From an uncultured Chloroflexia bacterium (lineage in GTDB: Bacteria > Chloroflexota > Ktedonobacteria > Ktedonobacterales > JADMIN01), in assembly GCA_963718915.1 (NCBI GenBank), contig CAVRAI010000003.1, forward strand, positions 570,001 through 602,000: a stretch of DNA of 32,000 bases. The letters are read 5' to 3'. This document shows, piece after piece, positions 10,045 to 26,560 of the stretch (position 1 is its first letter; each line of letters opens with the position of its first letter). A program made the position numbers and the translations under genes. The notes under the pieces were generated by a model, which saw nothing but the letters and a program-made list of their open reading frames with translations, did no database searches and had not been told where the DNA came from.

Positions 10045-10253
10045 GCGCGCCACCCGTTAATGGGTGATGGGCGCGTCGGACGGTCCTTCGCTCACTCGTC
10101 CCCACGAAGCCAGTCCGCCCTCACTGCTAAAATCGCCATTCATCGGATCGCTTTCGGCGTACGCAAAAATACCACTGTGTCTGTCTGCAAATCTCAGGTA
10201 TACTGCCCCTGGACACAGGCGAACACTGTGACGCACAGAGGAGGGATATCGCG

Positions 10254-10961
10254 ATGAATGGACATGCGCCGGGCCAGCCGCCGTTTCCACAGGCGTGGTG
10301 GGCTTTCGATCTGGGACGCTATCGTGGCTGCGACGGCACGTATTGCCGCTACGAATACGAGAGCCTGCCGCCGATACCGGCGGTGAGTGAGTCGCTCGAC
10401 TGGCTGGAGCCGCTGGATGAGCGCACCGACGCAAAGATGGCGATTCACCGCAATCCACCAGAAGCGCGCGGCGAGGTGGCAAAAATCGCGGAGTCGGCGG
10501 AGCGGCTGGGACTGACGCTGCCCGAATCGTTCATCCGGCTGATGAGCTCGACTGAGCTGCAGGACCGCATTCCCTCGTGTACCGCCTGCTACTTCAATCT
10601 CTCAGATGACATCATGCCTTGCCCCGGCAGTGACGGCGGCTACATCGTCCGCTTCTACTGCGACCAGCAGGACGTCCTGCTCTGGTACCTCTATCTCACG
10701 CCGCAGGGCGCGCAATACGTGCTCGTCACGCCTATCGAACTGGAGGAGATGGCGGCGAATACGCTCACCGACGAGGCTCGGCAGAGCATCCAGCGGAACA
10801 CGTGGGTCTGCGCGCCATCGTTCGCCGCCTTCATCTATCGCTGGTGGCTGGAAAACTCGCTCTGGTTCAAAGTCTCCGAATCAGATGACGAGGATAAGCT
10901 GACCGCAGACGAGCGCGCCTACCTCGCGCACTACAGCGCTGGTGGTGGCGCCAGCCAGTAG
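10254..10961 (+). CDS. hypothetical protein, possible SMI1/KNR4 (SUKH)-like fold
   Basis: ATG at 10254 preceded by GAGGAGGGA. The segment AESAERLGLTLPESFIRLMSS...RFYCDQQDVLLWYLYLTPQGAQYVLV resembles the 'LG..LPedy..fl ... dqqg...wyl' pattern of SMI1/KNR4 proteins. Pattern recognition only. Confidence 0.4.
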   Translation: MNGHAPGQPPFPQAWWAFDLGRYRGCDGTYCRYEYESLPPIPAVSESLDWLEPLDERTDAKMAIHRNPPEARGEVAKIAESAERLGLTLPESFIRLMSSTELQDRIPSCTACYFNLSDDIMPCPGSDGGYIVRFYCDQQDVLLWYLYLTPQGAQYVLVTPIELEEMAANTLTDEARQSIQRNTWVCAPSFAAFIYRWWLENSLWFKVSESDDEDKLTADERAYLAHYSAGGGASQ

Positions 10962-11161
10962 TCGTGCGCCATAACTCCCTATGCGCCTGGGAATATCTAC
11001 CCTTCCTTCTTTGCATTTCCAGTGCCGTCTGGTAGGATAATGCAATGGGGCGAAGCATGCTGGCGGCTCGGGATATATTTGGTAGCGCCGCCTAGGTGTA
11101 CCACCGCGAATCAGGCTGGCCGAGCTTCTTCATCTCTCCATCAGGAGGCTCTAAAGGACTT

Positions 11162-12004
11162 ATGATAAGACTACGATCACGTCTTGTGCTGCTGCTGGGG
11201 TGCCTTGTCGTCCTCGGCGTCATCATTTTGAGCGGCTGCAGCGGTACGGTGTCTACCACGAACCTGTCGCAGATCAAGCCGGTCGCGACGGTTCCCTATC
11301 TGCCGCCGACGGTGGTACCCAATACGCCCGTTGCCACGGCCACAGCCACGGCGACGGCGAAACCGCATCCGGCGAAGACACCTGTTCCATCTGGCCCACC
11401 AGCGCCGATTCCGACCGCGGGGTCATTACCTCCAGGCCCGATGCCCGCTGGTACCGTGCCCAATATTGGCGGCCAGCTCATCCTGGTCAGCCTCTCGCAA
11501 CAATGGCTCTTCGCCTTTCAGGATCATCGGCTGGTCTTCCGCACGGCGGTGACAACGGGCATGCCGCAGTTACCGACGCCAACCGGTACTTTCCATATCC
11601 AGTGGCACGAGCGCAATGTGACGTTCTACTCGCCGTGGCCGCTGGGGTCGCCCTATTATTACTCGCCGGAGCACATCAACTACGCCATGTATTTCCTGTA
11701 CAACGGCTACTACATCCACGACGCGCCCTGGCGACACGTCTTCGGCCCCGGCACGAATTATCCCCATACTGATCCTGACGGCACCCACGAGACGGGCAGC
11801 CATGGCTGTGTGAATGTGCCAACTGGGCCGATGTCATGGCTCTATAACTGGGCGCATGATGGCGCGACGGTCGTCATCTATGGCCATGCCGCCACCGGAC
11901 CCGCCCCGACACCAACGCCGACGAAGACGCCCGCGCCCGCACCGACGGCAACCGATACGCCTGTGCCTCCGCCAGCGCCAACCGACACGCCAACAACGCC
12001 GTAG
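11162..12004 (+). CDS. L,D-transpeptidase (YkuD domain) lipoprotein with PT-rich linkers
   Basis: ATG at 11162 after AGGAGG. The signal peptide carries a lipobox (LGVIILSGC). The YkuD core reads LILVSLSQQWLFAFQDHRLVFRTAVTTGMPQLPTPTGTF...YYIHDAPWR...GSHGCVNVP, with the catalytic HGC motif. Pro/Thr/Ala low-complexity regions lie at both ends. Confidence 0.85.
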   Translation: MIRLRSRLVLLLGCLVVLGVIILSGCSGTVSTTNLSQIKPVATVPYLPPTVVPNTPVATATATATAKPHPAKTPVPSGPPAPIPTAGSLPPGPMPAGTVPNIGGQLILVSLSQQWLFAFQDHRLVFRTAVTTGMPQLPTPTGTFHIQWHERNVTFYSPWPLGSPYYYSPEHINYAMYFLYNGYYIHDAPWRHVFGPGTNYPHTDPDGTHETGSHGCVNVPTGPMSWLYNWAHDGATVVIYGHAATGPAPTPTPTKTPAPAPTATDTPVPPPAPTDTPTTP

Positions 12005-12012
12005 AATCCAGA

Positions 12013-12193
12013 GACCTCACCCCCAGCCCCTCTCCTAGGAGGAGAAGGGAGTGTGCGCGTCGCCAACTGGCGAAATGGTTGCCTATGCCCTCCCCTGGTA
12101 GGGGAGGGTGGCCGAAGGCCGGGTGAGGTTCTTCCCTGGCGGCGGACCTCACCCCCAACCCCTCTCCCACAGGAGAGGGGCGCCAGAGGGGAG
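12013..12193. repeat. cluster of three REP-like hairpin repeats (+,-,+) between convergent genes; probable bidirectional terminator/RNA-stability elements
   Basis: Copy 1 (12013-12053): gacctcacccccagcccctctcctaggaggagaagggagtg. Copy 2 (12088-12129, inverted) has a perfect 9-bp stem ccctcccct/aggggaggg and ends in ccgggtgaggt. Copy 3 (12145-12193): gacctcacccccaacccctctcccacaggagaggggcg, with a 9-bp stem cccctctcc/ggagagggg. ORFs overlapping these repeats (11874..12170 on the minus strand, 12053..12250 on the plus strand) are artefacts. Confidence 0.8.
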
Positions 12194-12220
12194 CCAGAAT
12201 CGCGCCGAGTGGGCTGTGGC

Positions 12221-13162
12221 TCAGTTGAGGCTGGCGCGCACCTCGCGTAGCTCCGCTATGCGCCGACGCAGCCGACCAACCTCCGGCGCGGCGGGGGCGC
12301 GTTCGGCGTAGGTGGCGATATCGGCGGCGGCAAGGAGTGGCTCGCCCAGCGCCAGCCGCAGCAGCCCGCGATCCCGTAGCTCTTCGGGCATATCAGGCCG
12401 CAGCAGCACCAGCCGCTCCACCACTTCGAGCGCGAGCCGACTCTCGCCACGGTGCAGATAGATTACTTTGAGGTTGTTCAGCATGCGGGTGAGGATGGCG
12501 CGAGCGCTCAGGGGAGCGCTCCAGCGCGGATCAAAATAAGGGAGCGCTCCAGTCGCGCCCATCAACTCAATGATGAAATGGCGGCATTCGTCGGCGTCGA
12601 GCAACTTGCCGCCATGAAAGGCATCCAGGTAGAGGTCGCCACCCTCCTCGCGTGGCAGCGGCCACTTGACCATGAAGTGTGACGGCAGCCCAACGCCGCG
12701 TAGCGGAATGCCAAGGCGGCGCGCGACCTCCAGGTAGATGACCGAGAGCGTGATCGGCAGGCCAACGCCACGGTCGAGCGTTTCATGCAAATAGGTGTTG
12801 CGCGGATCGTAATAGTCTTCAGTATTGCCGGATAGCCCCTCGTGATCCGCCAACGTCTCGCGCAGCGTCTCCAGCACGCGAGTCGCCATTGCACGTTCTC
12901 GAAGCGCACGGGAACGTCGCAGCCCCGCCGCAGTTGTGCCAAGCGCCTCACGCACTATCGTTGCCAGCGCATCCAGTCGCCGCTGATAGTGGGCGGCGTT
13001 CAGATCAGCATAGGCGATGTCAGCCATCATCAGCGCGCCCTGCGCCAGATCAAGCTGGGTATCAGGATGGGCGGCAAACGCGGCGAAGCGCAGCAGCGGT
13101 GTGAACGGTGTAGCATCCATGGGCAACTCATCTATCAGCGAAAATGATGGGATGGTTCGCAC
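12221..13162 (-). CDS. SirB1/YchA-like protein (transglutaminase-like N-domain + TPR-like C-domain, UPF0162)
   Basis: YYDPRNTYLHETLDRGVGLPITLSVIYLEVARRLGIPLRGVGLPSHFMVKW...LYLDAFHGG, and a C-terminal RLALEVVERLVLLRPDMPEELRDRGLLRLALGE. This parallels E. coli SirB1 (...PEDPYEIRDRGLIYAQL). The start could be the GTG at 13162 or the ATG at 13120. Confidence 0.7.
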   Translation of the reverse strand: MRTIPSFSLIDELPMDATPFTPLLRFAAFAAHPDTQLDLAQGALMMADIAYADLNAAHYQRRLDALATIVREALGTTAAGLRRSRALRERAMATRVLETLRETLADHEGLSGNTEDYYDPRNTYLHETLDRGVGLPITLSVIYLEVARRLGIPLRGVGLPSHFMVKWPLPREEGGDLYLDAFHGGKLLDADECRHFIIELMGATGALPYFDPRWSAPLSARAILTRMLNNLKVIYLHRGESRLALEVVERLVLLRPDMPEELRDRGLLRLALGEPLLAAADIATYAERAPAAPEVGRLRRRIAELREVRASLN

Positions 13163-13248
13163 TTCCTGTATGGTATACGCTGAAGCGCGCGGGCAGGTAT
13201 GAACTAGGTTACAAATACTGCGGTCGGCTCACCATTGATGCCACTGCT

Positions 13249-14988
13249 TCATCGATGGGTGAGTTGTACGAGCGCGATGACGCAGAAGACGATGGCGAAA
13301 AGGCCGCCCAGCGCCAGCAGCGCGGCATAGATACCACGGGTGCGCGCCATGTAGCGCCGATAATAGGCGTCGGATGCCGTGGCAGGCTCGCGGAGACGCT
13401 GGCGCTCAGTGACGGTAAGCTCTGTCATCTCGGCCAGTCGCGTGGCAAGCGCCTTCTGCTCCAGCGCGAAATGGTCGTTGCGGGCGCGCAGCAGAAACGC
13501 GATGACAAACGCGATGTAGCCGCTATACAGGATGGCCGCCAGCAACGCCAGCAGCGGCGAGATGGCGGGCTGGATCAGGCCAGCGATGACCACTGCCGTC
13601 AGCAACCCCACCGTCCGGTAGACGTTATCCACCACATCGCCTGTGAGATCGCCGACCGCTTTACGCACCGTTTCCGCGTAGTCCGCCACGGCATTCTGCG
13701 CGGTCTGGCGCGCGGCGAAGTAGCGGTCGGTCTGGCCGCGCACGAAAAGCGTAAAGTTGGCTTTGGCCGCCTCCAGCGCATCCACCGCCGCCCGCGCCAC
13801 CTCGGCCAGCGATACCGCGTGACCTGGCGGCAGCTCGCGCGCCAGACACTCACGCGCGATGATGAGCGTGTCGACGGCGCCGCGCCGCGTGGCCCAGTCC
13901 GCCAGTCGCGCCAGCGTCTCTCCCGCAGCCGCCGATGGGAGCGCCTCATCGCCCGTAGTGGGGAGCGTACAGGTCGCGGGACGCACCCCGGCAAACCGCA
14001 GCGCCAGCCCATCCGTCAATCTGCCCTGCACGACGCTGGCGAGCGCGGTCGCCGCCAGCTCCGCCCGTAGGAGCGCCAGCTGCGCCGCTGTTGCCTCCAG
14101 ACCGGGAGCGCGGGCAACCAGCCGCAGCGTCTCCGCCGTCAGAATCTGTGGCGCGTCGGGCCAGCCACCCTCCTCGGCGAGCAAACGCCGTGACGCCTGC
14201 GCGCGGCTGACGAACTGGCGGAACGCGGCGGGTGAGACTTGCAGCCAATCGGGCACGTTGGGGCTCGACGCTCCCACGCATTCGAGCGCGGCGCCCGCCA
14301 GATAGCCTGGTGTGTCGCAGAGCAGCACGCAGGTTCGGCCATCGGCGCGAATCAGCCCCGACTGTTCCAAATAGGGGATCCCGGCGAGGCTGATGAGTTG
14401 ATTCCAGGCGGCGGCGGTATAGAAGACCGCGACCATCGCCGGAGCCGCGACGCCAGGTCGTTGCATCATGATGTCCCGCGCCAGCGTGAGCGCGTGTGTC
14501 TTGCCGAAGGAGAGCCGCGCCTCGACGCTGAGTGCGTCCCCCTGTGTCTCCGCCGCCGATTGCGCCGCCGCCTGAAATGTCCGTAACGCGCCAGCGGGAT
14601 CGCTCCCCGCACGCAGGGAGGCCGCCACGGCGGGCATATCGGGGTCCAGCCCATCCAGCCGCAGATCGAGCGCAAGGTCATCGGCCAGCGTGGCGAACCA
14701 TCGCCCAGCCTCGTCGCTATCACTGTGGACCAGGTGTTCGACAGTCAGCCGGGCAACCACCTCCAGCCGTTCGAGCGCCTCGCCCTCGGCCAGCCGCGCC
14801 TGGGAGATGTTGAACGCCACGCCAATATCGGCGATGACCTCGTAGAGATGCTGCAACTGAGCGAGATGCGAATCAGGATACGGCGCGGGACGCCCGACTG
14901 CGCCATCTGTCGCCACGTCGGTTGTGTCTGGCAGGGCTGGGCGGGTACGCTGGCTCGTGGTCTGGCTGGTGCGGTTCGGTCTGCTCAT
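13249..14988 (-). CDS. hypothetical 579-aa protein: ~430-aa Ala/Leu-rich soluble region of unknown fold plus 3 C-terminal TM helices; translationally coupled to the upstream NA37-like gene
   Basis: ORF 13249..15558 was trimmed to the ATG at 14988-14986. That ATG overlaps the upstream stop (minus strand cgATGAgc) and has GAGGGGG 8-9 nt upstream. The protein starts MSRPNRTSQTTSQR. TM helices: VGLLTAVVIAGLIQPAI, LLALLAAILYSGYIAFVIAFLL and IYAALLALGGLFAIVFCVIALV. I recognise no catalytic or family motif. Confidence 0.65.
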   Translation of the reverse strand: MSRPNRTSQTTSQRTRPALPDTTDVATDGAVGRPAPYPDSHLAQLQHLYEVIADIGVAFNISQARLAEGEALERLEVVARLTVEHLVHSDSDEAGRWFATLADDLALDLRLDGLDPDMPAVAASLRAGSDPAGALRTFQAAAQSAAETQGDALSVEARLSFGKTHALTLARDIMMQRPGVAAPAMVAVFYTAAAWNQLISLAGIPYLEQSGLIRADGRTCVLLCDTPGYLAGAALECVGASSPNVPDWLQVSPAAFRQFVSRAQASRRLLAEEGGWPDAPQILTAETLRLVARAPGLEATAAQLALLRAELAATALASVVQGRLTDGLALRFAGVRPATCTLPTTGDEALPSAAAGETLARLADWATRRGAVDTLIIARECLARELPPGHAVSLAEVARAAVDALEAAKANFTLFVRGQTDRYFAARQTAQNAVADYAETVRKAVGDLTGDVVDNVYRTVGLLTAVVIAGLIQPAISPLLALLAAILYSGYIAFVIAFLLRARNDHFALEQKALATRLAEMTELTVTERQRLREPATASDAYYRRYMARTRGIYAALLALGGLFAIVFCVIALVQLTHR

Positions 14989-16169
14989 CGGCCAGCCCCC
15001 TCTTTGAGCGTCAGTGTCTCGATGGTCAGGCGGATTTTGCCGCCGACGCGCTGGTCCTCCACCCGTGCCATGGCGGCGAAGCGCTCTGCCGGGACAATCA
15101 GCCGGGCGCCGCCGTCCAATTCCAGCGTCACCGTCTGCACGATGGGATCGGCGGTGGGGCGATCCACCGTGAAGTGGGTCTGGTGTGGCTCGAACGCGGC
15201 GTCGAAGATACTCTGTGTGAGTGTGGAAAGCAGATCGGCGGCCAGCGCGCCATTGCCCGGCAACGCGGCCAGCGCGAACGCGGGCAGATCGAGCGTCTCG
15301 TCCGCGAGGGCCGCTCGTCGCGCCTCGTAGACGTGGAGTAGCGTGTGCGGCGAGAGGGAAGCGCCGCGATCCGCCAGCCAGTCGTCGGTCGCGCGGAGAA
15401 AGAGCCGGGTGCGCCGCCGGGCCGACGGCAGAATCTGGGTGGTGAGGAAGCCGCGATAGAAGTAGGCGGCGACGCCCTCGGAGCGGATGTTGGCCTGGGT
15501 GTCGAGCAGAACCAGCGCGAATCCGGCGCCGTCCGCTGAGGGAGTAATCAGCGCGCATTTCTGTTTCTGGCGCACGGTCTCGGGCATCAGGTTATCGGCC
15601 AGCGCGATGCGCACCAGCCGCCGCCCGCGCTCCGTCGAGAAATTGCGCACCAGCCGGGCGTCTGGGTCGAGCTTGAAGAGCGCGATGCACGACATCGGCA
15701 AGCCCGGCGCGGTATAGATGGCGACGACGAAATCGCCCGGGTTGATCTGATTCGGGCGCTGCCGCATCTGCGCGAAGAGACGACGCGCCATCTCGTGCGA
15801 GACCGCGACGAACGCGGATGGCTCGCCAAGTAGTCTGGCGCAGAGGTCAGGCATGGTCGGCGTAGCAGCCTGTTCGGCGAGGAAGCGCGCCTGCCAGTCG
15901 GCGTTTTCGAGCGCCTGGGCAATGTAGTTGGCAAAGAGCGCATGGATGGTCGCATCCAGCGCCAACTCCGCCTCAACCAGCAGCAGGGCGCCTGTGCGGT
16001 TATCCAGATGATGCAGAATCAGCCGCTCGATGGTGATCGCGGTAGCGCGCGTCGGCAGCGCGACGACCGGTGGGGCGGCTGGCTGCGCCACCTCGGCGAT
16101 ATCGGGCGCCCGGAACGCCTGCCCGCGCTCGGCAATGTGCGCCGCGCCAGTTCTGCTGAGTCTGCCCAT
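14985..16169 (-). CDS. NA37 family (YejK/NdpA-like) nucleoid-associated DNA-binding protein homologue, with a ~45-aa N-terminal extension
   Basis: ORF 14985..16475 was trimmed to the ATG at 16169, with GAGGAGGTG 6-8 nt upstream. ITIERLILHHLDNRTG..LLLVE, GDFVVAIYTAPG..MSCIALFKLDP, KQKCALITPSADGAGFALVLLDTQ....VAAYFYRGFLTTQIL, RRRTRLFLRATDDWL and the C-terminal IRLTIETLTLK follow the order and character of E. coli YejK motifs (IALHQL.., GGIVLFCHY..YLLVAVL, YLTFLKG..VADFFMDFLG, TLTIKG) as recalled from memory. Confidence 0.65.
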   Translation of the reverse strand: MGRLSRTGAAHIAERGQAFRAPDIAEVAQPAAPPVVALPTRATAITIERLILHHLDNRTGALLLVEAELALDATIHALFANYIAQALENADWQARFLAEQAATPTMPDLCARLLGEPSAFVAVSHEMARRLFAQMRQRPNQINPGDFVVAIYTAPGLPMSCIALFKLDPDARLVRNFSTERGRRLVRIALADNLMPETVRQKQKCALITPSADGAGFALVLLDTQANIRSEGVAAYFYRGFLTTQILPSARRRTRLFLRATDDWLADRGASLSPHTLLHVYEARRAALADETLDLPAFALAALPGNGALAADLLSTLTQSIFDAAFEPHQTHFTVDRPTADPIVQTVTLELDGGARLIVPAERFAAMARVEDQRVGGKIRLTIETLTLKEGAGR

Positions 16170-16402
16170 CGTCCGCACCTCCTCGGAGACGCCGCCTGTC
16201 TCTCTCAATCCTCTCCATTGTACACCTATCAATTCTCTGGGCGGTTGCCTGATATGGTACTCTAGGGTACCCTTCGCCGCCTGCCGCATCACCAATGCGT
16301 ACTCCAGGTAAGAGCATGAGCGGTGGGATTCTTTTGTGGCTCTCGTTACCTGGTTTTGAGCGTCTCGTTCTCTCCTTGTGAGCGGAGGAAACTCTGCATT
16401 CG

Positions 16403-16422
16403 AGAGATACCCAGAGATACCC
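16403..16422 (+). repeat. direct 10-bp repeat AGAGATACCC x2 (plus a degenerate third copy AGAGGGATAC at 16434-16443) in a low-GC divergent intergenic region
   Basis: Read directly: cgAGAGATACCCAGAGATACCCatggatgtttgAGAGGGATACgcg. Located 28-47 nt upstream of the GTG at 16450. Confidence 0.8.
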
Positions 16423-16449
16423 ATGGATGTTTGAGAGGGATACGCGCAG

Positions 16450-16851
16450 GTGGCTTTTCTCGTGACCGAATACACACTCGTTTTCCGCCGGATCGGTGGG
16501 CGACGCCGAGACTTCTCGCGGCCCTATAACGGCTGGACGCTTGCCCGGCCCGGGCTGGCGCAGCTGATGCTGGACGCCGCGACGCCCGACACCGACACCG
16601 ACACCGTCAACGGTCGGCAAAGCGGCGAGATCGCCCATGTGGTGGTCGTGCCGCTCTGCTCTACCCTCGCGCTAGAGCCACTTGCCTACGAGCATTTTCT
16701 GGTGGCGAGCGGGGTGCTGCCGCATTCGCTGCGCCTGCTGGCGCATGTCCGCCTGACCGACACGCACGCGGTCGAAACGGTACGTCGGCGAATTCAGTCG
16801 CTGGTGATGGCGGCTGAGGTACAGGCGATCATCGAGGGGCTATCGGCCTGA
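16450..16851 (+). CDS. small hypothetical protein (133 aa from GTG 16450; alternative ATG at 16567)
   Basis: Hand-counted third-position GC is ~80% over the whole frame, versus a ~50% GC non-coding stretch immediately upstream, so this frame is probably translated. An in-frame stop lies at 16432. The 3' end overlaps the convergent helicase gene by 23 nt. Contains a DTDTDT hexanucleotide repeat. No family recognised with confidence. Confidence 0.45.
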   Translation: MAFLVTEYTLVFRRIGGRRRDFSRPYNGWTLARPGLAQLMLDAATPDTDTDTVNGRQSGEIAHVVVVPLCSTLALEPLAYEHFLVASGVLPHSLRLLAHVRLTDTHAVETVRRRIQSLVMAAEVQAIIEGLSA

Positions 16852-19759
16852 CCGTCTCCTGCTGGGCGCTGCTGCTCCGCGCCGGAATGATTCCGCCATG
16901 GCCATCGTAGAGCGATGCGCAGTACGCCACCAGCCGTCGTAACAGGGGGACTTCTTCGAGCGCGGCGCGATTGCCCAGGATGATAAGCTTGTGCCGCGCC
17001 CGTGTCAGCGCCACATTCAGTCGGTTCGGGTCCGCCAGGAAGTCTGGCCCGCGCCCGCCCCATGTTGCCGCGCCCCCACCGCCAAAGCTGTAGAAGATGA
17101 CCGACCGCTCGCCTCCCTGGAAGCGATCTACCGTATCCACCAGCACATCGGTCTCGCCACCTGCCACCAGCCGCGCGCGAATAGCGCCCACCTGCGCCCG
17201 ATACGGCGCGATCACGCCAATGTCGTGCGCCGCGACGCCCAACCGGCGCAGCTCGCGCACCAGATTGCGCACCAGGATCGCCTGCGCCTGATTCTCCTTA
17301 TGCCCGCGCTCGTCCGGTCCCAACGGCACGTCGATGAAGACGACTGGATGCGCCGGATCGAGGACTCGCCCGAAAGTCCCCACTGCGGCCTCGCTCAGCG
17401 CTAACCGCGCGGTACGCGCTGATCCCTCCGCAACCAGGGTGTCGCCGTAGAATTCACCGCTGGGGAAGGCGCAGATGACGGGGTGCATCCGATACTGGCG
17501 CCGCAGGGGGACGCTGGCCTCCGCACCACAACGCTCTAGCAGCGTGGCAAAGAGCGAGCGTTTCAAGCCACGAGCAGCCGCCGTCTCGCTTCGCACCAGT
17601 GGCGGAAGCTGGCGATCATCCCCGACCAGCACAAAGCGCCGCGCGAATCGGAGCGCGCCGAGCGTCGTGGGCAGCGTTAGCTGGGTCGCTTCGTCCAGGA
17701 TGGCCAGATCGAAGAGCAGTGGCTCGCCAATATCATCATAGCTCTCGGATGACCATGTGGCCGTCGTCGCGGCCACCAGCGGCGCGGTACGCAGCGTCTC
17801 GCGGATGCGCCCCGGCGTCAGTTCGGCGCCTTCTCCGGCCAGCGCCCGTGCCCGCGTCACCAGCCGATGCCCTTGTATCTCTGGCGCGACGCTTAGCTCG
17901 TGGCCCAGCCGCACAAAATCATCCCAGCCATCAGCCAGCAACCGTCGCAGGACGGTATCCACCGCCTGATTGGTAAACGCGCCGATCAGTACTCGCTCGC
18001 CGCGTTGCATCGCTCGCCGGGCAATCTCGGCGACAACACTCGTCTTGCCGGTACCCGGCGGCCCCTGAATCAGCAGATAGTCGCGGGCGGCCAGCGCGCG
18101 GGCAACTGCCTGCCGCTGCTCGGTATTGAGGCTGGCGGGCAATGTCTCCTGTATCGCTGCCTCGGCGGACTCGTCGAAGGTGGGCGCGATGGCGCCGCGG
18201 ACCAGCTCGCGCAGGTGGGGCGCGCCACGTAGCCAGCGCCAGAGATTGCGCACGGTGCGATCATGCACGATATCGCTCTCGTAGCGGTCAAGCAGAGTGG
18301 GGTTGGCGATGCGCTCCGGCGTCCAGACGACGACACGTTGCGCCTCGATGCGCAGAATCGTCCCGCTGACCACCGCGCCGCGCACGGGATCGCCCTCGCT
18401 CACCAGCACGGCGTCGCCCTCGCGGAGATCGGAGCCTTGCGCGCCTTCGAGGGTATATTCCCACTCGCCCTTCGCGGTCTGGCGCGGTTCGCCCACCAGC
18501 CTGAGGTCGCCCAGCGCCACACCACGCCGCATCCGCTCAGCGGGTGTCGCTCGCCAGAGCGCGCTGCCATCGACTTCAGCGGCGCGCGCCTCCTGCCGCA
18601 GCAGATCGTACATCTCGGCGAACATCGTGGCGTCTTCCTGGTCAACCGGCTCCAGCACGTCGGGCAGGTCAGGTGGCTGCCAGCCAAGCAACGCCGAGGC
18701 GCGCAGGCAATCCTGCCGCACCATGCAGCGCGCGCACTTCAGCGCGGATGGCGGCGGGGGTACCGCGCCGGTCGCGTGGACGAGCGCCAGCGCGTTGCGT
18801 AGCTCCATCACTCGTTGCAGATCGCGATGGACGAAGGGGATCCTGTAGGTGTCTGCGCGACCGGGCGTTCCACTATAGAGCAGCGTCGCGCCGGGGCCAT
18901 CCTGCCGTCCCGGAAAGCGGGCGGCCAACAGCGTCTGGTAGCCATGCACCTGCCAGCGATGCTCGCGTTTGGGCAGCGACGCGCGCACGTTGCCGGTCTT
19001 CAGTTCAAGCAGTGACCCGCCGTGGGGATCCTGCAACAAGACATCGAGCCGCCCCTTCAGGCCAACCTCCGGCGCCAGGAGAAACGTCTCGGCGCGGATG
19101 TCGGGAGCGGTGCGCCAGAGATTCTGGCGGCTCTGGGCGTACCATGCGGCCAGCGCGCGTATATGGGGCGCGGCCTCAGCGGCCATCTCCCCCTCGCCGA
19201 TTTGTCGCAGCGCCAGCTCAACCTGCGCCGCGTCCAGGGCACGCTGAAGATAGACCTCGATAGGTTCGTTGCCGCCCTTGAGCAGCTCTTTAAACGCGGT
19301 ATGCACCAGCGTCCCACGCAGCGAGGCCGCGCTTGGCGGTGAGGGCGCCATACGGCGTAGCGGATACTGGCGCACGCAGTACTCGGCGTTGTTGATATCG
19401 GTAATGTTGAGCAGCAGGTCGGGTTCCAGCACGATCACGCCCGCTGGCAGCAGCCGCAACGTCTCGGGAGTAGCTGTGCGGGCGAGATGATGGACGCACA
19501 CACGCAACCCGCGCCAGCGATCTGGCGGATAGGCCGATAATTCGCGCCAGAGGGCGCGTCCCTGCTCCTCGCAACGCACATGTATGGTCTCGCCGCGTTC
19601 ATCGCGCAGCGTCAGTTCCAACTGGCGCAACCTGGGGTCAAATGCCGCGTCGCACAGTTCGCCGGAAACGCTGGCCACGTCACAGGGGGTCGCGCGCTCC
19701 ATCTCCCATGGGCAGAGAAAGCAGCTCTGCGCGCTATTCGTAGACTTGTCTGCTGCCAT
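16829..19759 (-). CDS. Dna2-like bifunctional protein: N-terminal Cas4/RecB-type PD-(D/E)xK nuclease with a 4-Cys Fe-S cluster, fused to an Upf1/Dna2-type SF1B helicase
   Basis: Nuclease motifs: AEYCVRQY (Cys1), GRLDVLL...LLELKTG (D...ExK), QVHGYQTLL (QhxxY) and CARCMVRQDC (CxxCx5C). Helicase motifs: LIQGPPGTGKTS (I), AILDEATQL (II), VLVGDDRQLPP (III), RQYRMHPVI (IV), VIAPYRAQV, VDTVDRFQGGERSVIF (V) and NVALTRARHKLIILG (VI). A ~115-aa Cys-containing N-terminal extension (CFLCPWEMERATPCD) has unknown function. Confidence 0.85.
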   Translation of the reverse strand: MAADKSTNSAQSCFLCPWEMERATPCDVASVSGELCDAAFDPRLRQLELTLRDERGETIHVRCEEQGRALWRELSAYPPDRWRGLRVCVHHLARTATPETLRLLPAGVIVLEPDLLLNITDINNAEYCVRQYPLRRMAPSPPSAASLRGTLVHTAFKELLKGGNEPIEVYLQRALDAAQVELALRQIGEGEMAAEAAPHIRALAAWYAQSRQNLWRTAPDIRAETFLLAPEVGLKGRLDVLLQDPHGGSLLELKTGNVRASLPKREHRWQVHGYQTLLAARFPGRQDGPGATLLYSGTPGRADTYRIPFVHRDLQRVMELRNALALVHATGAVPPPPSALKCARCMVRQDCLRASALLGWQPPDLPDVLEPVDQEDATMFAEMYDLLRQEARAAEVDGSALWRATPAERMRRGVALGDLRLVGEPRQTAKGEWEYTLEGAQGSDLREGDAVLVSEGDPVRGAVVSGTILRIEAQRVVVWTPERIANPTLLDRYESDIVHDRTVRNLWRWLRGAPHLRELVRGAIAPTFDESAEAAIQETLPASLNTEQRQAVARALAARDYLLIQGPPGTGKTSVVAEIARRAMQRGERVLIGAFTNQAVDTVLRRLLADGWDDFVRLGHELSVAPEIQGHRLVTRARALAGEGAELTPGRIRETLRTAPLVAATTATWSSESYDDIGEPLLFDLAILDEATQLTLPTTLGALRFARRFVLVGDDRQLPPLVRSETAAARGLKRSLFATLLERCGAEASVPLRRQYRMHPVICAFPSGEFYGDTLVAEGSARTARLALSEAAVGTFGRVLDPAHPVVFIDVPLGPDERGHKENQAQAILVRNLVRELRRLGVAAHDIGVIAPYRAQVGAIRARLVAGGETDVLVDTVDRFQGGERSVIFYSFGGGGAATWGGRGPDFLADPNRLNVALTRARHKLIILGNRAALEEVPLLRRLVAYCASLYDGHGGIIPARSSSAQQETVRPIAPR

Positions 19760-19904
19760 CGCCAGCGCTCACTTTCCCGCCAGCGGCTATCGCATGGCGC
19801 ATCGCAGTGTACGGCGAAGCAGGCGGCGCGTCAAGCGGGCTGGAGGCGATGGACCGATATCCGCCGCTACAGTTCAGCTGGAACCTGTAACCCAAGATCG
19901 ACGT

Positions 19905-19933
19905 TTGTGAAAAGAGGTATTTGCGGTTATACT
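19905..19933 (+). promoter_or_regulatory. candidate sigma70-type promoter TTGTGA-N17-TATACT for the HlyD-family gene (~205-nt leader)
   Basis: TTGTGA at 19905-19910 and TATACT at 19928-19933 with a 17-nt spacer, in the divergent intergenic region 19760-20144. Confidence 0.45.
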
Positions 19934-20144
19934 ATCCGCGTCTAGCTGAACGCGAAAGTCTATCGGGCACAGTGCCGGGCGATTACGGTTCATCGGAACG
20001 ATATGCTCTGGCCATCTGGTGACGCTGTGGCGCGCAACTCGTCCATATACGATACTCAGAGTTGATAGCGTATCGCTGATGCAGCGCGTGAAAGATGCTC
20101 CTGCCACGGAGCGCTCGCGTGCTTCGAAGGGATAGAGAAGCACC

Positions 20145-21632
20145 ATGGAGGATTCGCCACAAACACCCTTCAAAGACAGACCCAATGTCAGCGAGACGAC
20201 GATGCCTGGCCGCTACGTCGATCCCGTGACCGAGACAGATTACTCAGTAACATCGATGGATGGCATCCGCGGGTTCAACAAACTCTGGTGGAAGCATCGG
20301 CGCTGGCTTGTCCCTGTGCTCTCGGTGGCGCTGCTTGCGCTGATTCTCTTTGCCACGCTCGCCATCATCGTGCGTTCGCGCCAGCCCTATCTGACGTTTG
20401 GAGTGGTGACACAGGGCAACATCGTGCTCTCATTCCAGACGACTGGCACGCTGCGGAGCGCTGTCTACGGCGCTGATTTCGCGGTGACGGGGACGGTAGC
20501 TCAGATCAACGTGACGATAGGCCAGCAGGTCTCGCAGGGCGATACCCTCGCGCAACTCAATACCACGCTGCTGCAGGATGCGGTGAATCAGGCGCAGGTG
20601 GCCGTCAATGGCGCGTCAACGGCGTTATCCAGCGCGCAGACCAACCAGGATAAGGTTCAGACCTCCGCCAATGCCCTGACGGACAGCGCCTATACGACTG
20701 AGCAGGCGGCGATTGCTCAGTGCAATCGTGTATCGAGTCCGCCGCCCAACTGTGTCGCCCAGGCCAGAAGCCAGTACGCCGCCGCGCTTGCCGCCGCCGA
20801 CAGCATGAACGCGCAGGCCCAGCAGCAGACCACTACGGCTCAGGCGCAATACAACTCGGCCAAGGCGGGTCTGCAGGGCGTGCAGGATAACCTGGCCGCC
20901 GCCACGCTCAAAGCGCCGCATGGAGGGACCATTGCGGCGATCAACGGCGTTGTGGGTCAGACCAGCGGCGGTACCAAGAGCAGCTCCACGCCATTCATCC
21001 AGATTGCCGATCTCAACGCGCTGCAAATCACGGCGACGGTGAACGAGTCGCAGGTGGGCGTTGTGCTGCCGCAAGACGCGGTGCGTTTCACGGTGCCTTC
21101 GTTCAAGAATCGCGTCTTCAGTGGCTCGGTGAGCGGCGTCTCGCCGTTTGGGCAGGCAACCCACGATACGGTGCTCTACCCGATGACGGTGGATGTCGAC
21201 GGCCAGTCGGTGAGCTCCGGGACGGCGAACGCGACGGGCCAGACGCTGCTTCCCGGCATGACGGCGAAGATGACCGTGCTGACGGCGCAGCGATTCGCGG
21301 TGAAGCTCATCCCCAATAGCGCCGTGACCTACGCGCACCTCGCCGCCGATCCGAGACACTCCACGCTCATCAGCAAGGCGGCGGCAACTAAAGCGCTCGC
21401 CGAGGCGCGGCAGATGCTCACCCAGTTAGAGAACTCCGGCACGGATTACTCGCTGGATAATCCCACACCCGCCTATGTGCTGGTGTTGGTGAAGGGCAGA
21501 TGGATAGCGCAGCCGGTGGTGCTCGGACTGACCGACGGCAGGCACTACGAGGTGCTGGCGGGGCTGAGTCTGGGCCAGAAAGTGGCGACAGGCGAACAAC
21601 TCAACTGGTTCACCATCCTGCGTAACCAGTAA
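20145..21632 (+). CDS. HlyD/MacA-family periplasmic adaptor (membrane fusion protein) of an efflux system
   Basis: N-terminal TM helix (WLVPVLSVALLALILFATLAIIV). Then a lipoyl-like segment (GTVAQINVTIGQQVSQGDTLAQL), a long Ala/Gln-rich coiled coil, LKAPHGGTIAAINGVVGQ, and a beta-barrel region (LPGMTAKMTVL). The start could also be the Met of MPGRYV about 18 codons downstream. Confidence 0.8.
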   Translation: MEDSPQTPFKDRPNVSETTMPGRYVDPVTETDYSVTSMDGIRGFNKLWWKHRRWLVPVLSVALLALILFATLAIIVRSRQPYLTFGVVTQGNIVLSFQTTGTLRSAVYGADFAVTGTVAQINVTIGQQVSQGDTLAQLNTTLLQDAVNQAQVAVNGASTALSSAQTNQDKVQTSANALTDSAYTTEQAAIAQCNRVSSPPPNCVAQARSQYAAALAAADSMNAQAQQQTTTAQAQYNSAKAGLQGVQDNLAAATLKAPHGGTIAAINGVVGQTSGGTKSSSTPFIQIADLNALQITATVNESQVGVVLPQDAVRFTVPSFKNRVFSGSVSGVSPFGQATHDTVLYPMTVDVDGQSVSSGTANATGQTLLPGMTAKMTVLTAQRFAVKLIPNSAVTYAHLAADPRHSTLISKAAATKALAEARQMLTQLENSGTDYSLDNPTPAYVLVLVKGRWIAQPVVLGLTDGRHYEVLAGLSLGQKVATGEQLNWFTILRNQ

Positions 21633-21826
21633 CAAGTCCTCAGCGCAGGATGCGCCCGCGCCGCCATGCCCAGGTGCGCTACACAGGCTACCGCGTGCAA
21701 GAGGACGGTGTCATCGTGTTATACTTCAGGTGACACCGGCTGTTCATGCGCGCGTGGGCCAGCTCCAATACTCCAGGCCAGCGCACACGCTCGCACTACG
21801 ATTAAGTCAACGAGGTCGAGGAGCAG

Positions 21827-22765
21827 ATGAGCGAACTGGCTGTCTTCACGGGACGGGCGCACCAGCAACTGGCAATCGATATCTGCGTACACCTCGGTAT
21901 CCCGCTGGGCAATGCTGAGGTCTTTGAGTTCGACAACGAGAATATCTTCGTCAAGATCAATGAGAACGTCCGCGGCAAGGACGTCTACCTCGTTCAGCCG
22001 TTTAGCACGCCGGTGAACACCTCCATCATGGAGGTATTCATCATCATCGACGCGCTCCGGCGCGCCTCGGCCCAACGTGTCACGGCGGTGATCCCCTACT
22101 ATGCCTATGGACGCACCGACAAAAAGGACCAGCCGCGCGTCCCCATCACGGCGCGCCTGATCGCCGACTGTATCACCGTCGCGGGCGCGAATCGCGTGCT
22201 GACGATGGATCTGCATGCGGGCCAGATTCAGGGCTTCTTCAATATCCCGGTGGATGAGTTGACCGCGGCGCCCATTCTCGTCAACTACGTCCGCTCGTTG
22301 AAGCTCACCGATTTTACCGTCGTCGCCACCGACACCGGGTTCGCCAAGAAGGCGCGCAACTTTGCCGAGGATCTGAATGCTCCACTGGCGATCATCGAGA
22401 AACGCCGCACCAACAATGCGGGCGCGGTGGAGAGCCTCGGCCTGATCGGTAGTGTGGAGGGGCAGAACGCCATCATCGTCGACGACGAGATCGGCACGGC
22501 AGGCTCGCTGGTACAGGCGGCGCAGGTGGTGCGCGAGAGCGGCGCGCGCGATATCTACGCCGCGGCGGTGCATGGCATCCTCTCAGGGCCAGCCATCCAG
22601 AATATCCAGCATTCCGATATCAAGAAGCTGGTGATTACGGATACTGTCCCATTACCGCCAGAGAAGCGCATTCCCCAGATTGCGCAGTGTTCCGTCGCGG
22701 AGCTGTTTGCCGGGGCCATTGCGCGCATTCACGAAGGGCGTTCGGTCTCGGAGCTTTTTCGATAG
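21827..22765 (+). CDS. prs: ribose-phosphate pyrophosphokinase (PRPP synthetase)
   Basis: Collinear with B. subtilis Prs as recalled: FEFDNENIFVKINENVRGKDVYLVQP, IMEVFIIIDALRRASA, VIPYYAYGRTDKK, LTMDLHAGQIQGFFNIPVD, IIVDDEIGTAGSL (PRPP-binding loop) and HGILSGPA. GAGGAG SD 3 nt before the ATG. Confidence 0.95.
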   Translation: MSELAVFTGRAHQQLAIDICVHLGIPLGNAEVFEFDNENIFVKINENVRGKDVYLVQPFSTPVNTSIMEVFIIIDALRRASAQRVTAVIPYYAYGRTDKKDQPRVPITARLIADCITVAGANRVLTMDLHAGQIQGFFNIPVDELTAAPILVNYVRSLKLTDFTVVATDTGFAKKARNFAEDLNAPLAIIEKRRTNNAGAVESLGLIGSVEGQNAIIVDDEIGTAGSLVQAAQVVRESGARDIYAAAVHGILSGPAIQNIQHSDIKKLVITDTVPLPPEKRIPQIAQCSVAELFAGAIARIHEGRSVSELFR

Positions 22766-22795
22766 CAGCCGTAGCAGCGCGGGGAATGTGCGCCG

Positions 22796-23254
22796 ATGAT
22801 GGACGAGACGGCAGCGGCAGCGGTTTCTATCACGCCAGAGTTCGAGAGCATCCTGCGGTATCTGCGGACGCTGGCGGAACCATGCGCGCCGCCGATGGGC
22901 GCGGGCGGCTTCGATGTACTCTATGCCAGCGCGCGTGAGGTGGTTGTCTGGTACTCCCCGGCCCGTGACGGCCAGATGGCGCGTGAGATCGCGATTCCCG
23001 CCGAGGTGCTCGCCGCCGCATGGCAATCGCTCTGCGCGGGCGCGCTACTGGATGAGGCGACGTTGTTCGCGTTGGGGCTAGGCTCAGCGGGCGCGCAGTG
23101 GGTCATCGCGCTGCTGGCGCAGATTCCCGGTATACAGGTGCGGCAGGAGCCGCTGGCGCTGGCGTGGGCGCTGCTGGCAGCTTCTTCCACGCCTCCCACG
23201 TCTCAACCCGTTGAGCATACTGAGCTTTATTCAGGCGGTGATCCAGAGGCATAG
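22796..23254 (+). CDS. hypothetical protein (152 aa)
   Basis: ORF only; follows prs by 30 nt. No recognisable motif and a weak RBS. Confidence 0.4.
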   Translation: MMDETAAAAVSITPEFESILRYLRTLAEPCAPPMGAGGFDVLYASAREVVVWYSPARDGQMAREIAIPAEVLAAAWQSLCAGALLDEATLFALGLGSAGAQWVIALLAQIPGIQVRQEPLALAWALLAASSTPPTSQPVEHTELYSGGDPEA

Positions 23255-24416: not shown

Positions 24417-25913
24417 ATGAACGCCCAGCGTCACGAACACGAACTCGAACACAAACACGAGCAACCAGCAATTCGGTCTCATGCCACGCCCCAGTCGTTG
24501 CGGGCGGTCTGGGTGGCCTTGGCCGGACTATCAGCGGTATTTCTCTTCGAGATGCTGGACAACTCAATCCTGAACGTCGCGCTGCCCACGATTGGACGCG
24601 ACTTGCACGTTTCGACCATCGCGCTGCAGTGGGTGACGGGCGCGTACGCGGTCGTGTTCGGCGGGTTGATGTTGGTGTTCGGAGCAATATCCGACCGGTT
24701 CGGCCGACGACGGGTCATGCTCATCGGGCTGGTGCTGCTTGGCATCGCGAGCCTGGCGACCGCGTTCGTCACCACGACGGAGCAACTGATCGTCGTGCGG
24801 GCAGTGATGGGCTGCGCGGCGGCGATGACGACTCCAGGGACGATGGCGCTGGCCTTCCGGATGTTCGAGGAAGATAGCCTGCGCCTCCGTGCGATAAACC
24901 TCATCTCGACTGTGGGTCTGGTTGGACTCGCGATCGGCCCGACTGTGGGTGGCTTCGTGCTCGCGATCGCGCCATGGCAGGTTCTGCTGCTGGTGAACGT
25001 GCCGATCGCCGTGCTCGCGATCATCTGTGTGCGGGTCGGTATCGCTGCGGACGAAGCGGCTGACCTTCACCGCGACCCGGTGGATGTCCTCGGAGCGGTG
25101 CTGGGCACGGCGACGATCGTTCTCGCGCTCGTCGCACCGACGCTATTCGTGAACGAAGGCGCCGACTCATGGGCGCCATGGACGGCCACCGCTGCGGCCG
25201 TTGTGGGGGCGATTTTCTTCTTCCTCCGCGAGCACTCGGCCCGTTATCCGCTTCTCGACCTGACGCTCGTTGCTCGCCCGCTCGTTTCCAGCGGCCTGGC
25301 CTATAAAGCTGCCGCTGGGCTGGCGACCGCCGGTCTCGGCTACATGGTGACGCTGCAGTTGCAGCTCGACTGGGGGTGGACGCCCGCACTCGCTGCTATC
25401 GGCATGCTACCGCAGGTCATCGTCCTCGTCGCGGGCGGCGCGTTCGTCAATCCGTTCGTGCAACGGGTTGGTCTCGACCGGGCAGCATGGCTCAGCGCTG
25501 CGGCGGTTGTGTTCGGGCTTGCCGTCTACGGTCTGCTGAGCAGCTTCGGATATGTGTGGGTCGCGATCGCACTCGTACTCGTGGCAGCCGGGTTGCGCGT
25601 GGTCGGCGTCGTTGCCGGGGTCAACGTGCTCCGTGGCCTGCCGAAGAACCGGACCACAATCGGCGCGGCGCTCACCGACACCGCAACCGAGGTCACTTCC
25701 GGCGTCGGTATCGCCGTCACCGGCACCATCCTCGCAGCGCTGTTCACCGGCGATATCGCCACATCGAACTGGAGCACGCAACAAACCGCGGAATTCCAGA
25801 CGGCAGTCACGATTGCCGGTCTCGTGCTCACAGTCGTGGCTGCGGCGCTCGTCGGGTGGGCGATCCTCCGTACGCGGAGCGCCGCAGACGGCCAGGAGAT
25901 GTATTCAAAATGA
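24417..25913 (+). CDS. MFS transporter, DHA2 (EmrB/QacA-like, 14-TMS) drug:H+ antiporter family
   Basis: LDNSILNVALPTIGRDLHVSTIALQWVTGAYAVVFGGLMLVFGAISDRFGRRRVMLIGL is the signature N-terminal region, including the GxxSDRxGRR motif A. About 14 hydrophobic helices follow. Confidence 0.9.
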   Translation: MNAQRHEHELEHKHEQPAIRSHATPQSLRAVWVALAGLSAVFLFEMLDNSILNVALPTIGRDLHVSTIALQWVTGAYAVVFGGLMLVFGAISDRFGRRRVMLIGLVLLGIASLATAFVTTTEQLIVVRAVMGCAAAMTTPGTMALAFRMFEEDSLRLRAINLISTVGLVGLAIGPTVGGFVLAIAPWQVLLLVNVPIAVLAIICVRVGIAADEAADLHRDPVDVLGAVLGTATIVLALVAPTLFVNEGADSWAPWTATAAAVVGAIFFFLREHSARYPLLDLTLVARPLVSSGLAYKAAAGLATAGLGYMVTLQLQLDWGWTPALAAIGMLPQVIVLVAGGAFVNPFVQRVGLDRAAWLSAAAVVFGLAVYGLLSSFGYVWVAIALVLVAAGLRVVGVVAGVNVLRGLPKNRTTIGAALTDTATEVTSGVGIAVTGTILAALFTGDIATSNWSTQQTAEFQTAVTIAGLVLTVVAAALVGWAILRTRSAADGQEMYSK

Positions 25914-25952
25914 GGGAACGCAGTTCCAGAGACAATTCCCAAGGCTCACAGA

Positions 25953-26399
25953 TTAGCGATCGCGCGTGATGCGCGCCATGCTGGCGACGAGCAAGACCAG
26001 CAGCATCGCGTTCACCGGATGGAATGCCGCGACAAGCGGGATGATGCGGCCAGCGTCGATCAGCAACCCCTGGAGGATCATCAGGCCGAAGACTAGCCAC
26101 GAACGGCGCCGGAGTGTTGCTCCCAGATGCCCGCGCCAGGCGACCAGCGGCAGCGCCAGCGAGCCAAGGATGACCAGCGTTCCCAGAATCATGTGTGGCA
26201 GGAAGCTCGACACGCCGAAGACGCCCAGCCCGGCGAAGAAGATTTGCAATGTGACGCCGCCCAGCAGGATGCGCGCGATGACGGTATGCGCTCTGGCCGC
26301 GCGGCTGGGGATCGCGGCGAGAGTCTGCGACGCTACGGGAACGGCGGTGGGTGTGACTGGCTGAGTTGCTTCGGGTGGGGTGGAAATGAGCGTTTGCAT
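25953..26399 (-). CDS. small hypothetical membrane protein (4 TM helices)
   Basis: ATG at 26399 preceded by GAGGAGG. Helices: VIARILLGGVTLQIFFAGLGVFGV, HMILGTLVILGSLALPLVAW, SWLVFGLMILQGLLI and AFHPVNAMLLVLLVASM. It resembles actinobacterial DUF-type small membrane proteins, but I cannot name the family with certainty. Confidence 0.55.
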   Translation of the reverse strand: MQTLISTPPEATQPVTPTAVPVASQTLAAIPSRAARAHTVIARILLGGVTLQIFFAGLGVFGVSSFLPHMILGTLVILGSLALPLVAWRGHLGATLRRRSWLVFGLMILQGLLIDAGRIIPLVAAFHPVNAMLLVLLVASMARITRDR

Positions 26400-26560
26400 T
26401 GGGAACCTCCTCGCTCAGTTCAATGTTTGTGTTCTCCTCTTTCTTGTCACCCTCAGCATAGCCCGGCATCGTTCCGCAACCGCTACGACGAGCGTTACAG
26501 AGTTGGGATAGTAGCGAATCTCGTAATGTTGTTGAAGATCGGGTTGAGGTGGGACTGGAG

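Follow-up and report, generated by a model that had tools for sequence, protein, structure and literature searches.

The window analysed here is a 32,000-nt stretch of the genome of an uncultured Chloroflexia bacterium of the order Ktedonobacterales (contig CAVRAI010000003.1, positions 570,001 to 602,000). Its minus strand carries, at window positions 16829-19759, a gene whose product is, judging from sequence comparison and structural modelling, a bacterial Dna2-family nuclease-helicase with a predicted iron-sulphur (Fe-S) cluster and predicted enzymatic activities. As read from the list of open reading frames (ORFs) and the translation, the gene is a single intact ORF of 976 codons plus stop with an ATG start. 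The window has a GC content of ca. 64 %, at which many long ORFs are spurious; the one at hand was counted as real because homologues of the nuclease-helicase are found in databases (565, the top one being 92 % identical over the full length) and because the ratio of nonsynonymous to synonymous substitution rates (dN/dS), determined for the gene against four orthologues, was 0.10-0.17, which indicates purifying selection. A family alignment of 90 sequences (A1), on which all statements of invariance below are based, supports the annotated start codon, since both M1 and the C13-F-L-C16 motif are conserved in it; the shorter gene calls present in some databases would lose this CxxC. The protein is currently labelled Dna2 in JGI pipelines and 'AAA domain-containing protein' at NCBI.

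All elements of the protein are given here with their coordinates on the minus strand. The N-terminal part (residues 1-115; 19415-19759) is an OB-fold domain with a putative zinc site, C13/C16/C26/H91, recognised from an AlphaFold2 (AF2) model, Foldseek matches and conservation. It is followed by a PD-(D/E)XK 'iron-staple' nuclease (residues 116-365; 18665-19414), delimited by Pfam and by HMMER alignment to mouse Dna2, and by a two-helix stalk with a beta-barrel (residues 366-540; 18140-18664), seen in the AF2 model and in the alignment to mouse Dna2. The C-terminal part (residues 541-955; 16895-18139) is a Upf1-like superfamily 1B (SF1B) helicase with domains 1A and 2A and motifs Q, I, Ia and II-VI, as revealed by Pfam and by matches to sequences in the PDB.

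A first-pass annotation, made from the letters of the DNA and a list of their ORFs, had taken the gene product for a Dna2-like protein that joins an Fe-S nuclease to an SF1B helicase, with the domains ordered as in Dna2, and had proposed profile searches with Pfam PDDEXK_1, AAA_11 and AAA_12. All three profiles matched: PDDEXK_1 at residues 119-351 (3.7e-14, 53.7 bits, cut-off 22), AAA_11 with 4e-33 and AAA_12 with 5.5e-42. An additional match was obtained to the Pfam Dna2 profile (PF08696) at residues 91-211 (1.5e-10, 41.6 bits, cut-off 22.4). When the protein was compared with all PDB sequences using phmmer, mouse DNA2 ranked first (E 1.1e-63), with a weak matching stretch at residues 106-206 (6.8 bits) and a main one at residues 223-943 (207 bits). 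Together with the Foldseek results given below, these matches bear out both the Fe-S nuclease plus SF1B helicase assignment and the Dna2 domain order.

The same annotation had read seven SF1 helicase motifs and a Cas4/RecB nuclease signature from the one 976-aa ORF, and it had named mutated catalytic residues as a possible outcome of careful alignment. Each motif was recovered and is invariant in A1, and no such mutations were seen, the catalytic and cofactor residues being the same in all 90 homologues. In the nuclease, the invariant positions are the Fe-S cysteines C128, C342, C345 and C351 (the last three forming CxxCx5C), the active-site residues D239, E252-L-K254 and Q270-x3-Y274, and H153. 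In the helicase they are Q548 and motifs I (GPPGTGKT, 566-573), Ia (FTNQAVD, 595-601), II (DEAxQ, 689-693), III (GDxxQLPP, 713-720), IV (QYRM, 755-758), V (DTVDRFQG, 875-882) and VI (NVALTRA, 915-921). HMMER alignment to mouse Dna2 placed D239 on mouse D278, the residue whose replacement in D278A yields a nuclease-dead mouse enzyme (PMC4716839), and ELK on ELK; QxxxY and the four Fe-S cysteines aligned as well. The stalk and barrel region aligned without a break to mouse Dna2 residues 455-640.

The AF2 model built from A1 was of high quality (predicted local distance difference test score, pLDDT, 89.3; predicted template modelling score, pTM, 0.88). In it, long helices at 374-412 and 497-539 surround strands at 433-492 to make up the stalk and barrel. 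When the model was searched against the PDB with Foldseek, the Dna2 entries 5EAN, 5EAW and 5EAX came out on top (E 7.5e-58, TMq 0.72, 1066 columns), matching over practically the full length of the protein, with the helicase-only structures of IGHMBP2, Upf1 and Sen1 following at a distance. The published architecture of Dna2 comprises an OB domain, a nuclease of ca. 310 residues, a stalk with a beta-barrel, and SF1B domains 1A and 2A (PMC4716839), and every one of these elements was found in the protein, in unchanged order. Thus, the features of Dna2-family membership, namely the nuclease motifs, the four iron-staple cysteines, the OB fold, the stalk and beta-barrel and the SF1B helicase, are all present. 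The protein resembles mouse DNA2 (5EAN, 5EAW, 5EAX) in domain order and number, in the catalytic Asp/Glu/Lys, in QxxxY and in the four Fe-S cysteines; it differs in that the two are only ca. 25 % identical and in that its bacterial host has no RPA.

The ca. 115 N-terminal residues had been left unassigned by the first-pass annotation, which had pointed to a CxxC and a third cysteine in them. The cysteines proved real and invariant (C13, C16 and C26, joined by an equally invariant histidine, H91, that was absent from the earlier list), while the region itself can now be assigned to the OB fold. In the AF2 model, residues 28-111 have the topology b1-b2-b3-helix-b4-b5, which is that of an OB fold, with pLDDT above 90 over residues 31-110, and a separate model of residues 1-122 (pLDDT 84.9) again had OB topology. 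Almost all top PDB matches of the domain in Foldseek were OB folds, in a list that was uniform even as its E-values were weak: Teb1 OB-B (9e-4), RPA32, Stn1, POT1, TEBP-alpha, the anticodon-binding OB of LysRS, a small SSB, and the HIN domain of IFI16, itself a tandem OB. C13 and C16 lie in an arm ahead of b1, C26 at the start of b1 and H91 within b4; the four residues probably form a structural zinc site. When a profile of the OB domain was used for searching, the domain turned up in many Dna2-like proteins of distant prokaryotic relatives, with ca. 30 % identity, and the CxxC...C...G...HL signature was retained in 44 of the 46 distant relatives that were aligned. Eukaryotic Dna2 is not known to carry the CxxC...C...H set. 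The OB domain of mouse Dna2 does not bind DNA and binds RPA70 (PMC4716839); by analogy, the bacterial domain may contact SSB.

The only prokaryotic Dna2-like enzyme characterised biochemically is Bad of Geobacillus stearothermophilus, a monomeric protein with an Fe-S cluster, ssDNA (single-stranded DNA) endonuclease activity, ssDNA-dependent ATPase activity and 5'-3' translocase/helicase activity; it has a large central domain that is absent from DNA2, its Walker A lysine is K815 and its nuclease aspartate D150, and its gene is distributed sporadically, next to a Type III-like methyltransferase gene (PMC7430649). A second bacterial class, in Mycobacteria and Rhodococcus, is mentioned in the same work (PMC7430649). 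Our protein is likewise bacterial and monomeric, and likewise carries an iron-staple nuclease N-terminal to an SF1B motor. Unlike in Bad, the Walker A lysine is K572, the nuclease aspartate D239, and there is no central insert: residues 223-943 align to mouse DNA2 in one stretch, which leaves no room for one. A methyltransferase gene next to ours was found neither by Pfam scans of the window nor among the conserved neighbours, and the distribution is class-wide. The position of its aspartate suggests that Bad probably lacks the ca. 115-residue OB domain. Membership in the Bad group was therefore rejected on architecture and context, as judged from the published description of Bad, and the protein of the window is nearer to eukaryotic Dna2 in layout than Bad is.

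Among PDB sequences, the helicase half also matched IGHMBP2, Upf1 and Sen1, and this closeness raises the question of whether the enzyme acts mainly on RNA or RNA-DNA hybrids, removing R-loops or RNA primers instead of resecting DNA ends. For eukaryotic Dna2 itself, a bypass of the RNA primer on Okazaki fragments has been proposed (PMC4716839). The nuclease and tunnel layout, however, is one that the protein has in common specifically with Dna2 and AddB, both of them acting on ssDNA, and Bad is an ssDNA-dependent ATPase and a DNA helicase-nuclease (PMC7430649). A role mainly on RNA is thus improbable in our estimation, and it overlaps in part with a role on DNA, as flap and primer processing suit both.

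The distribution of the gene was determined by scanning genomes, one per GTDB species, which returned at least 552 related stretches; the statements on distribution below refer to the best 80 of them. All 80 came from the class Ktedonobacteria, and they take in every cultured genus listed: Thermosporothrix hazakensis, four Thermogemmatispora, Ktedonosporobacter rubrisoli, Ktedonobacter sp., Tengunoibacter tsumagoiensis and several Dictyobacter. Identity to the query was 91 % in the closest metagenome-assembled genomes (MAGs), 53-60 % in other 'Ktedonobacterales' MAGs, 49 % in Thermosporothrix, 45-46 % in Thermogemmatispora and 39-45 % in Ktedonobacteraceae, and the named genera grouped together in a neighbour-joining (NJ) tree. 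Among these 80 loci, the gene was single in each genome. When 1.84 billion representative proteins were searched with its N-terminal half (residues 1-540), just 311 clusters (at 50 % identity) were detected. We conclude that this Dna2-like family is rare overall and pervasive in Ktedonobacteria, and that the gene is inherited vertically across the class. A tblastn search of 72,556 plasmids revealed one full-length relative (27.6 % identity), and none was found by the same method in 50,697 phage records. None of 10 neighbouring proteins in the window matched PADLOC. With the gene nearly absent from plasmids and phages and with no PADLOC-matching neighbours, an origin from a mobile element or a defence island was rejected.

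To compare gene neighbourhoods, ORFs were clustered across 85 related loci. In Ktedonobacteraceae, Thermogemmatispora and Thermosporothrix, the gene lies in a housekeeping block that is different from the surroundings in the window and equally stable; genes for DUF711, Usp (universal stress protein), ClpS, a GAF protein, a PfkB sugar kinase and an Fe-S assembly protein are found in it in 33-46 loci, with a nucleoside hydrolase as an additional neighbour in 21 loci. No recurrent methyltransferase, restriction or other defence gene was seen among the conserved neighbours of the related loci. In one locus, L002, a gene with a PCMT-type methyltransferase domain lies ca. 2 kb downstream on the opposite strand, and it is not conserved in other loci.

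We consider it probable, with good though not full confidence, that this member of the Dna2 family acts in chromosomal DNA maintenance of Ktedonobacteria and not in phage defence. The architecture, the integrity of the motifs, vertical inheritance across the class, purifying selection and the housekeeping surroundings were each established in silico; from the family resemblance we infer the binding of an Fe-S cluster and of zinc, the enzymatic activities and the physiological substrate. Several points weigh against this assignment. Bacteria normally resect ends through RecBCD, AddAB or AdnAB and process Okazaki fragments through RNase H and Pol I, so that the need for a Dna2 is unexplained (PMC7430649). 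The 'core' status of the gene rests on its breadth across genera in the best 80 loci, and the clade is known through sequences and models. Finally, the top scores in PADLOC and NCBIfam belong to defence helicases (MkoA, 250 bits; PLuB_AAA, 309 bits).

These matches are relevant to the suggestion of the first-pass annotation that the protein is possibly Nhi-like. The idea would be that of a single-protein antiphage nuclease-helicase, either similar to Nhi or a restriction-like motor-nuclease as proposed for Bad, which degrades phage replication intermediates. Defence systems often contain nuclease-helicase fusions, the list of top PADLOC and NCBIfam matches consists of MkoA, MkoC, DpdJ, PLuB_AAA and ProA, Bad adjoins a methyltransferase gene of Type III-like kind (PMC7430649), and some distant relatives carry N-terminal NERD domains. 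The individual matches, however, do not extend to membership in any of the systems. The protein resembles Nhi, the staphylococcal single-protein defence system, in combining a nuclease with an SF1-type helicase in a single polypeptide, and differs from it in nuclease type and in genomic behaviour; the PADLOC Nhi model (PDLC02372) matched residues 544-592 only, i.e., 49 residues around the Walker A/P-loop (E 4.4e-4, 17 bits), and membership was rejected because the match is limited to the P-loop. The best-scoring stretch of MkoA lay at 654-949, in the helicase half, as did that of MkoC; DpdJ matched at 549-946, and ProA also in the helicase region. The MkoA and MkoC stretches cover the C-terminal part of much longer profiles and no neighbour matched PADLOC, which leaves no candidate for the partner MkoB/PLD nuclease, so the protein was not counted as a Mokosh component.

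PLuB_AAA (NF040671, 'PLuB system helicase-like protein') was the best NCBIfam match, with residues 109-945 on profile positions 351-1246. Here, the nuclease and the helicase are both collinear with the profile, but the score of 309 bits is to be compared with a curated cut-off of 999, and the first 350 profile positions were unmatched. Similar scores (220-340 bits) were given by this profile to all eight distant Dna2-like proteins that were scanned. With a score so far under the cut-off and generic to distant Dna2-like proteins, membership in PLuB was rejected; a literature search on 'PLuB system' found nothing. Cas4 profiles matched residues 225-352 (2.3e-8 in PADLOC, 8.5e-8 in NCBIfam). The protein was not assigned to Cas4, as TIGR00372 scored 32.2 bits against a cut-off of 65 and the domain is embedded in a protein of 976 aa. 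What the protein has in common with Cas4 and with the AddB/AdnB subunits is the Fe-S-stapled RecB-family nuclease fold. In AddB, the nuclease is C-terminal to an inactive SF1A-like domain and the partner is AddA; Cas4 is a stand-alone protein of ca. 200 aa tied to CRISPR loci. No cas genes were found among the annotated neighbours in the window.

The genomic behaviour of the gene speaks against phage defence more generally. The gene is class-wide, tracks taxonomy, is present once per genome in the best 80 loci and keeps a stable housekeeping synteny; plasmids and phages are practically free of it, and its neighbourhood contains neither a methyltransferase nor a PADLOC-recognised gene. The first-pass annotation had left open whether orthologues are core or patchy, and had allowed that the protein might belong with vertically inherited housekeeping repair proteins. 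Class-wide occurrence in Ktedonobacteria among the best 80 loci speaks for a core gene on the former point and, together with the housekeeping synteny and purifying selection, in essence bears out the latter. A defence function is therefore, in our view, unlikely, and we retain chromosomal DNA maintenance as the preferred assignment.

A mechanism for a Dna2-family enzyme in this role can be proposed by analogy with mouse Dna2 and Bad. On a single chain, the OB fold with its probable Cys3His zinc site would decorate the [4Fe-4S]-stapled PD-(D/E)XK endonuclease, and the stalk and beta-barrel would join this nuclease to the Upf1-type SF1B 5'-3' motor, with the nuclease placed ahead of the motor. 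A free ssDNA end, in the form of a 5' flap or a 5' overhang, would thread through a tunnel holding the active site D239/E252/K254. The ATP-driven helicase (K572) would provide DNA affinity and 5'-3' translocation, so that 5'-tailed ssDNA would be fed in and cut endonucleolytically on the threaded strand. Both the two-metal PD-(D/E)XK nuclease and the SF1B ATPase active sites are intact in the sequence. The OB domain would most likely serve protein contact, for example with SSB, or an auxiliary contact with ssDNA. In the cell, the distribution and context of the gene point to a possible role in 5'-strand resection at breaks, or in the processing of long flaps or stalled forks.

Several relatives carry additional domains. 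In part of the Ktedonobacteraceae, a Ser/Thr kinase is fused in frame to the N-terminus (Pkinase, residues 19-260, E 3.4e-46), resulting in proteins of 1327-1375 aa. Such fusions were found at L049:6771-10754 (plus strand), L050, L051, L059, L063, L064, L071, L075 and L076, and in protein P0126; with the exception of L051, the kinase-fused loci group into a single clade of the NJ tree, of which L054 is a member too. An N-terminal extension of ca. 250-350 aa is present in P0152 and P0277-P0284 (ca. 1220-1300 aa), and also in P0143, P0149 and P0159. It corresponds to NERD (PF08378, from precomputed Pfam assignments) and stands ahead of the Cys3His OB, nuclease and helicase; at least some of the NERD-type relatives come from Chloroflexota MAGs. 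A further relative is the metagenomic protein P0144 (2254 aa), in which a UvrD-type SF1A helicase and an extra PD-(D/E)XK domain accompany the Cys3His OB, the Dna2-like Fe-S nuclease and the SF1B helicase. This protein is one cluster with one member and may be an artefact of assembly or gene calling. Its AddAB/AdnAB-like dual-motor layout on one chain is a weak hint at end resection, by analogy.

The Dna2 family itself is already known, and the protein of the window is an uncharacterised member of it. What is modestly new is the complete eukaryote-like architecture, its conservation throughout a class, and a Cys3His signature in the OB domain that a rare clade of prokaryotic Dna2 proteins has as well. 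Bad, the only bacterial Dna2-like protein studied, is architecturally atypical and possibly linked to restriction; the clade described here is distinct from it, with a full eukaryote-like domain set, conservation in a whole class of bacteria with large, actinomycete-like genomes, and housekeeping surroundings. It is thus a better candidate for asking what the job of Dna2 is in a bacterium. The Cys3His motif in the OB domain is a concrete structural feature that can be tested, and the kinase, NERD and UvrD fusions of relatives provide functional hints. For annotation, 'AAA domain-containing protein' should be replaced with 'Dna2-family nuclease-helicase', and an Nhi or defence label is unsuited. 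A more far-reaching proposal, which we put forward tentatively and hold to be rather doubtful as a whole, is that a Dna2 orthologue of full architecture may serve Ktedonobacteria, along with some other Chloroflexota, as a core enzyme of genome maintenance, perhaps as the main 5'-end resection/long-flap nuclease that replaces RecBCD/AddAB-type machines or works beside them. Its Cys3His zinc-OB module, not described before, would mark the rare prokaryotic Dna2 clade, and in one lineage it would be under the control of the fused Ser/Thr kinase. Should this proposal hold, the enzyme would offer a tractable bacterial model of eukaryote-type Dna2 and would bear on the origin of eukaryotic Dna2.

In the window, the gene is followed by a small convergent ORF of 133 aa (16450-16851, plus strand), which shares 23 nt with the 3' end of the Dna2-like gene. 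In 18 of the loci examined (17 of them independent), tblastn recovered it directly downstream of the orthologue, at 39-90 % identity, while neither Pfam nor PADLOC matched it. It is thus a conserved neighbour, separate from the enzyme. Next to it is a low-GC stretch at 16200-16450 (51-53 % versus a background of ca. 65 %), which we read as a promoter region, and then, on the minus strand at 13249-16070, an operon of an NA37 gene and a membrane-protein gene, recognised by Pfam NA37 and an ATGA overlap. The NA37 gene, which encodes a YejK-like nucleoid-associated protein, extends over ca. 14985-16070; judged against orthologues, the ORF that begins at 16475 is an over-extension. The membrane-protein gene occupies 13249-14988, with its ATG at 14988 overlapping the NA37 stop codon (ATGA, 14985-14988), and its product of 579 aa has transmembrane helices in the C-terminal part and matches neither Pfam nor PADLOC. 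The two genes were adjacent in all 13 loci that have both; another locus (L081) ends within NA37. We conclude that they form a translationally coupled operon of their own, in a transcription unit separate from that of the Dna2-like gene, and they constitute an uncharacterised two-gene module in their own right.

The geometry reported by the first-pass annotation, with the pair on the same strand as the Dna2-like gene and a low-GC region and a small opposite-strand ORF in between, is as described. Its implication of a functional link, under which the enzyme would form a module with NA37 and the membrane partner, for example in membrane-anchored DNA processing or uptake, does not follow from the wider comparison. 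In a subclade with at least 52 % identity, 14 loci indeed have the pair on the strand of the Dna2-like gene, at 0.16-5 kb downstream of it. The spacing is, however, variable, and the spacer holds unrelated genes (hydrolase, cupin, SnoaL, NUDIX); in the window, the conserved convergent ORF and the low-GC promoter region intervene, and the ATGA couples NA37 to the membrane gene and not to the Dna2-like gene. The pair is not beside the gene in L002 and L004/L010, which belong to the same clade, nor in ca. 60 loci of the remaining Ktedonobacteria, where housekeeping genes adjoin. An operon of the Dna2-like gene with the pair was rejected, given what lies between them and a linkage confined to one subclade. 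A joint module is thus highly improbable, and the adjacency is residual lineage-specific synteny and no functional module.

On its upstream side, the Dna2-like gene is separated by an intergenic region of 385 bp (19760-20144, from the ORF map) from a divergent HlyD-like gene (20145-21632, plus strand), beyond which lies Prs. A consensus scan pointed to a promoter-like site at 19834-19806 on the minus strand, a weak match at 9 of 12 positions; nothing in the promoter and terminator scan exceeded the expectation from shuffled sequence. Downstream, the convergent ORF, NA37 and membrane-protein genes are followed by genes for a transglutaminase-TPR protein and a YkuD transpeptidase. Farther out in the window are genes for a Mur ligase, MurB, a LiaF-like protein, a TetR/MFS pair and a CoA-transferase, as well as long ORFs at 25828-26940, 28019-29395 and 30078-31682 that are without a Pfam match. 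The whole window (1-32000) is a piece of ordinary Ktedonobacterales chromosome, and its part at ca. 10250-23250 is syntenic with MAG contigs L001, L007 and L009 at 77-95 % protein identity.

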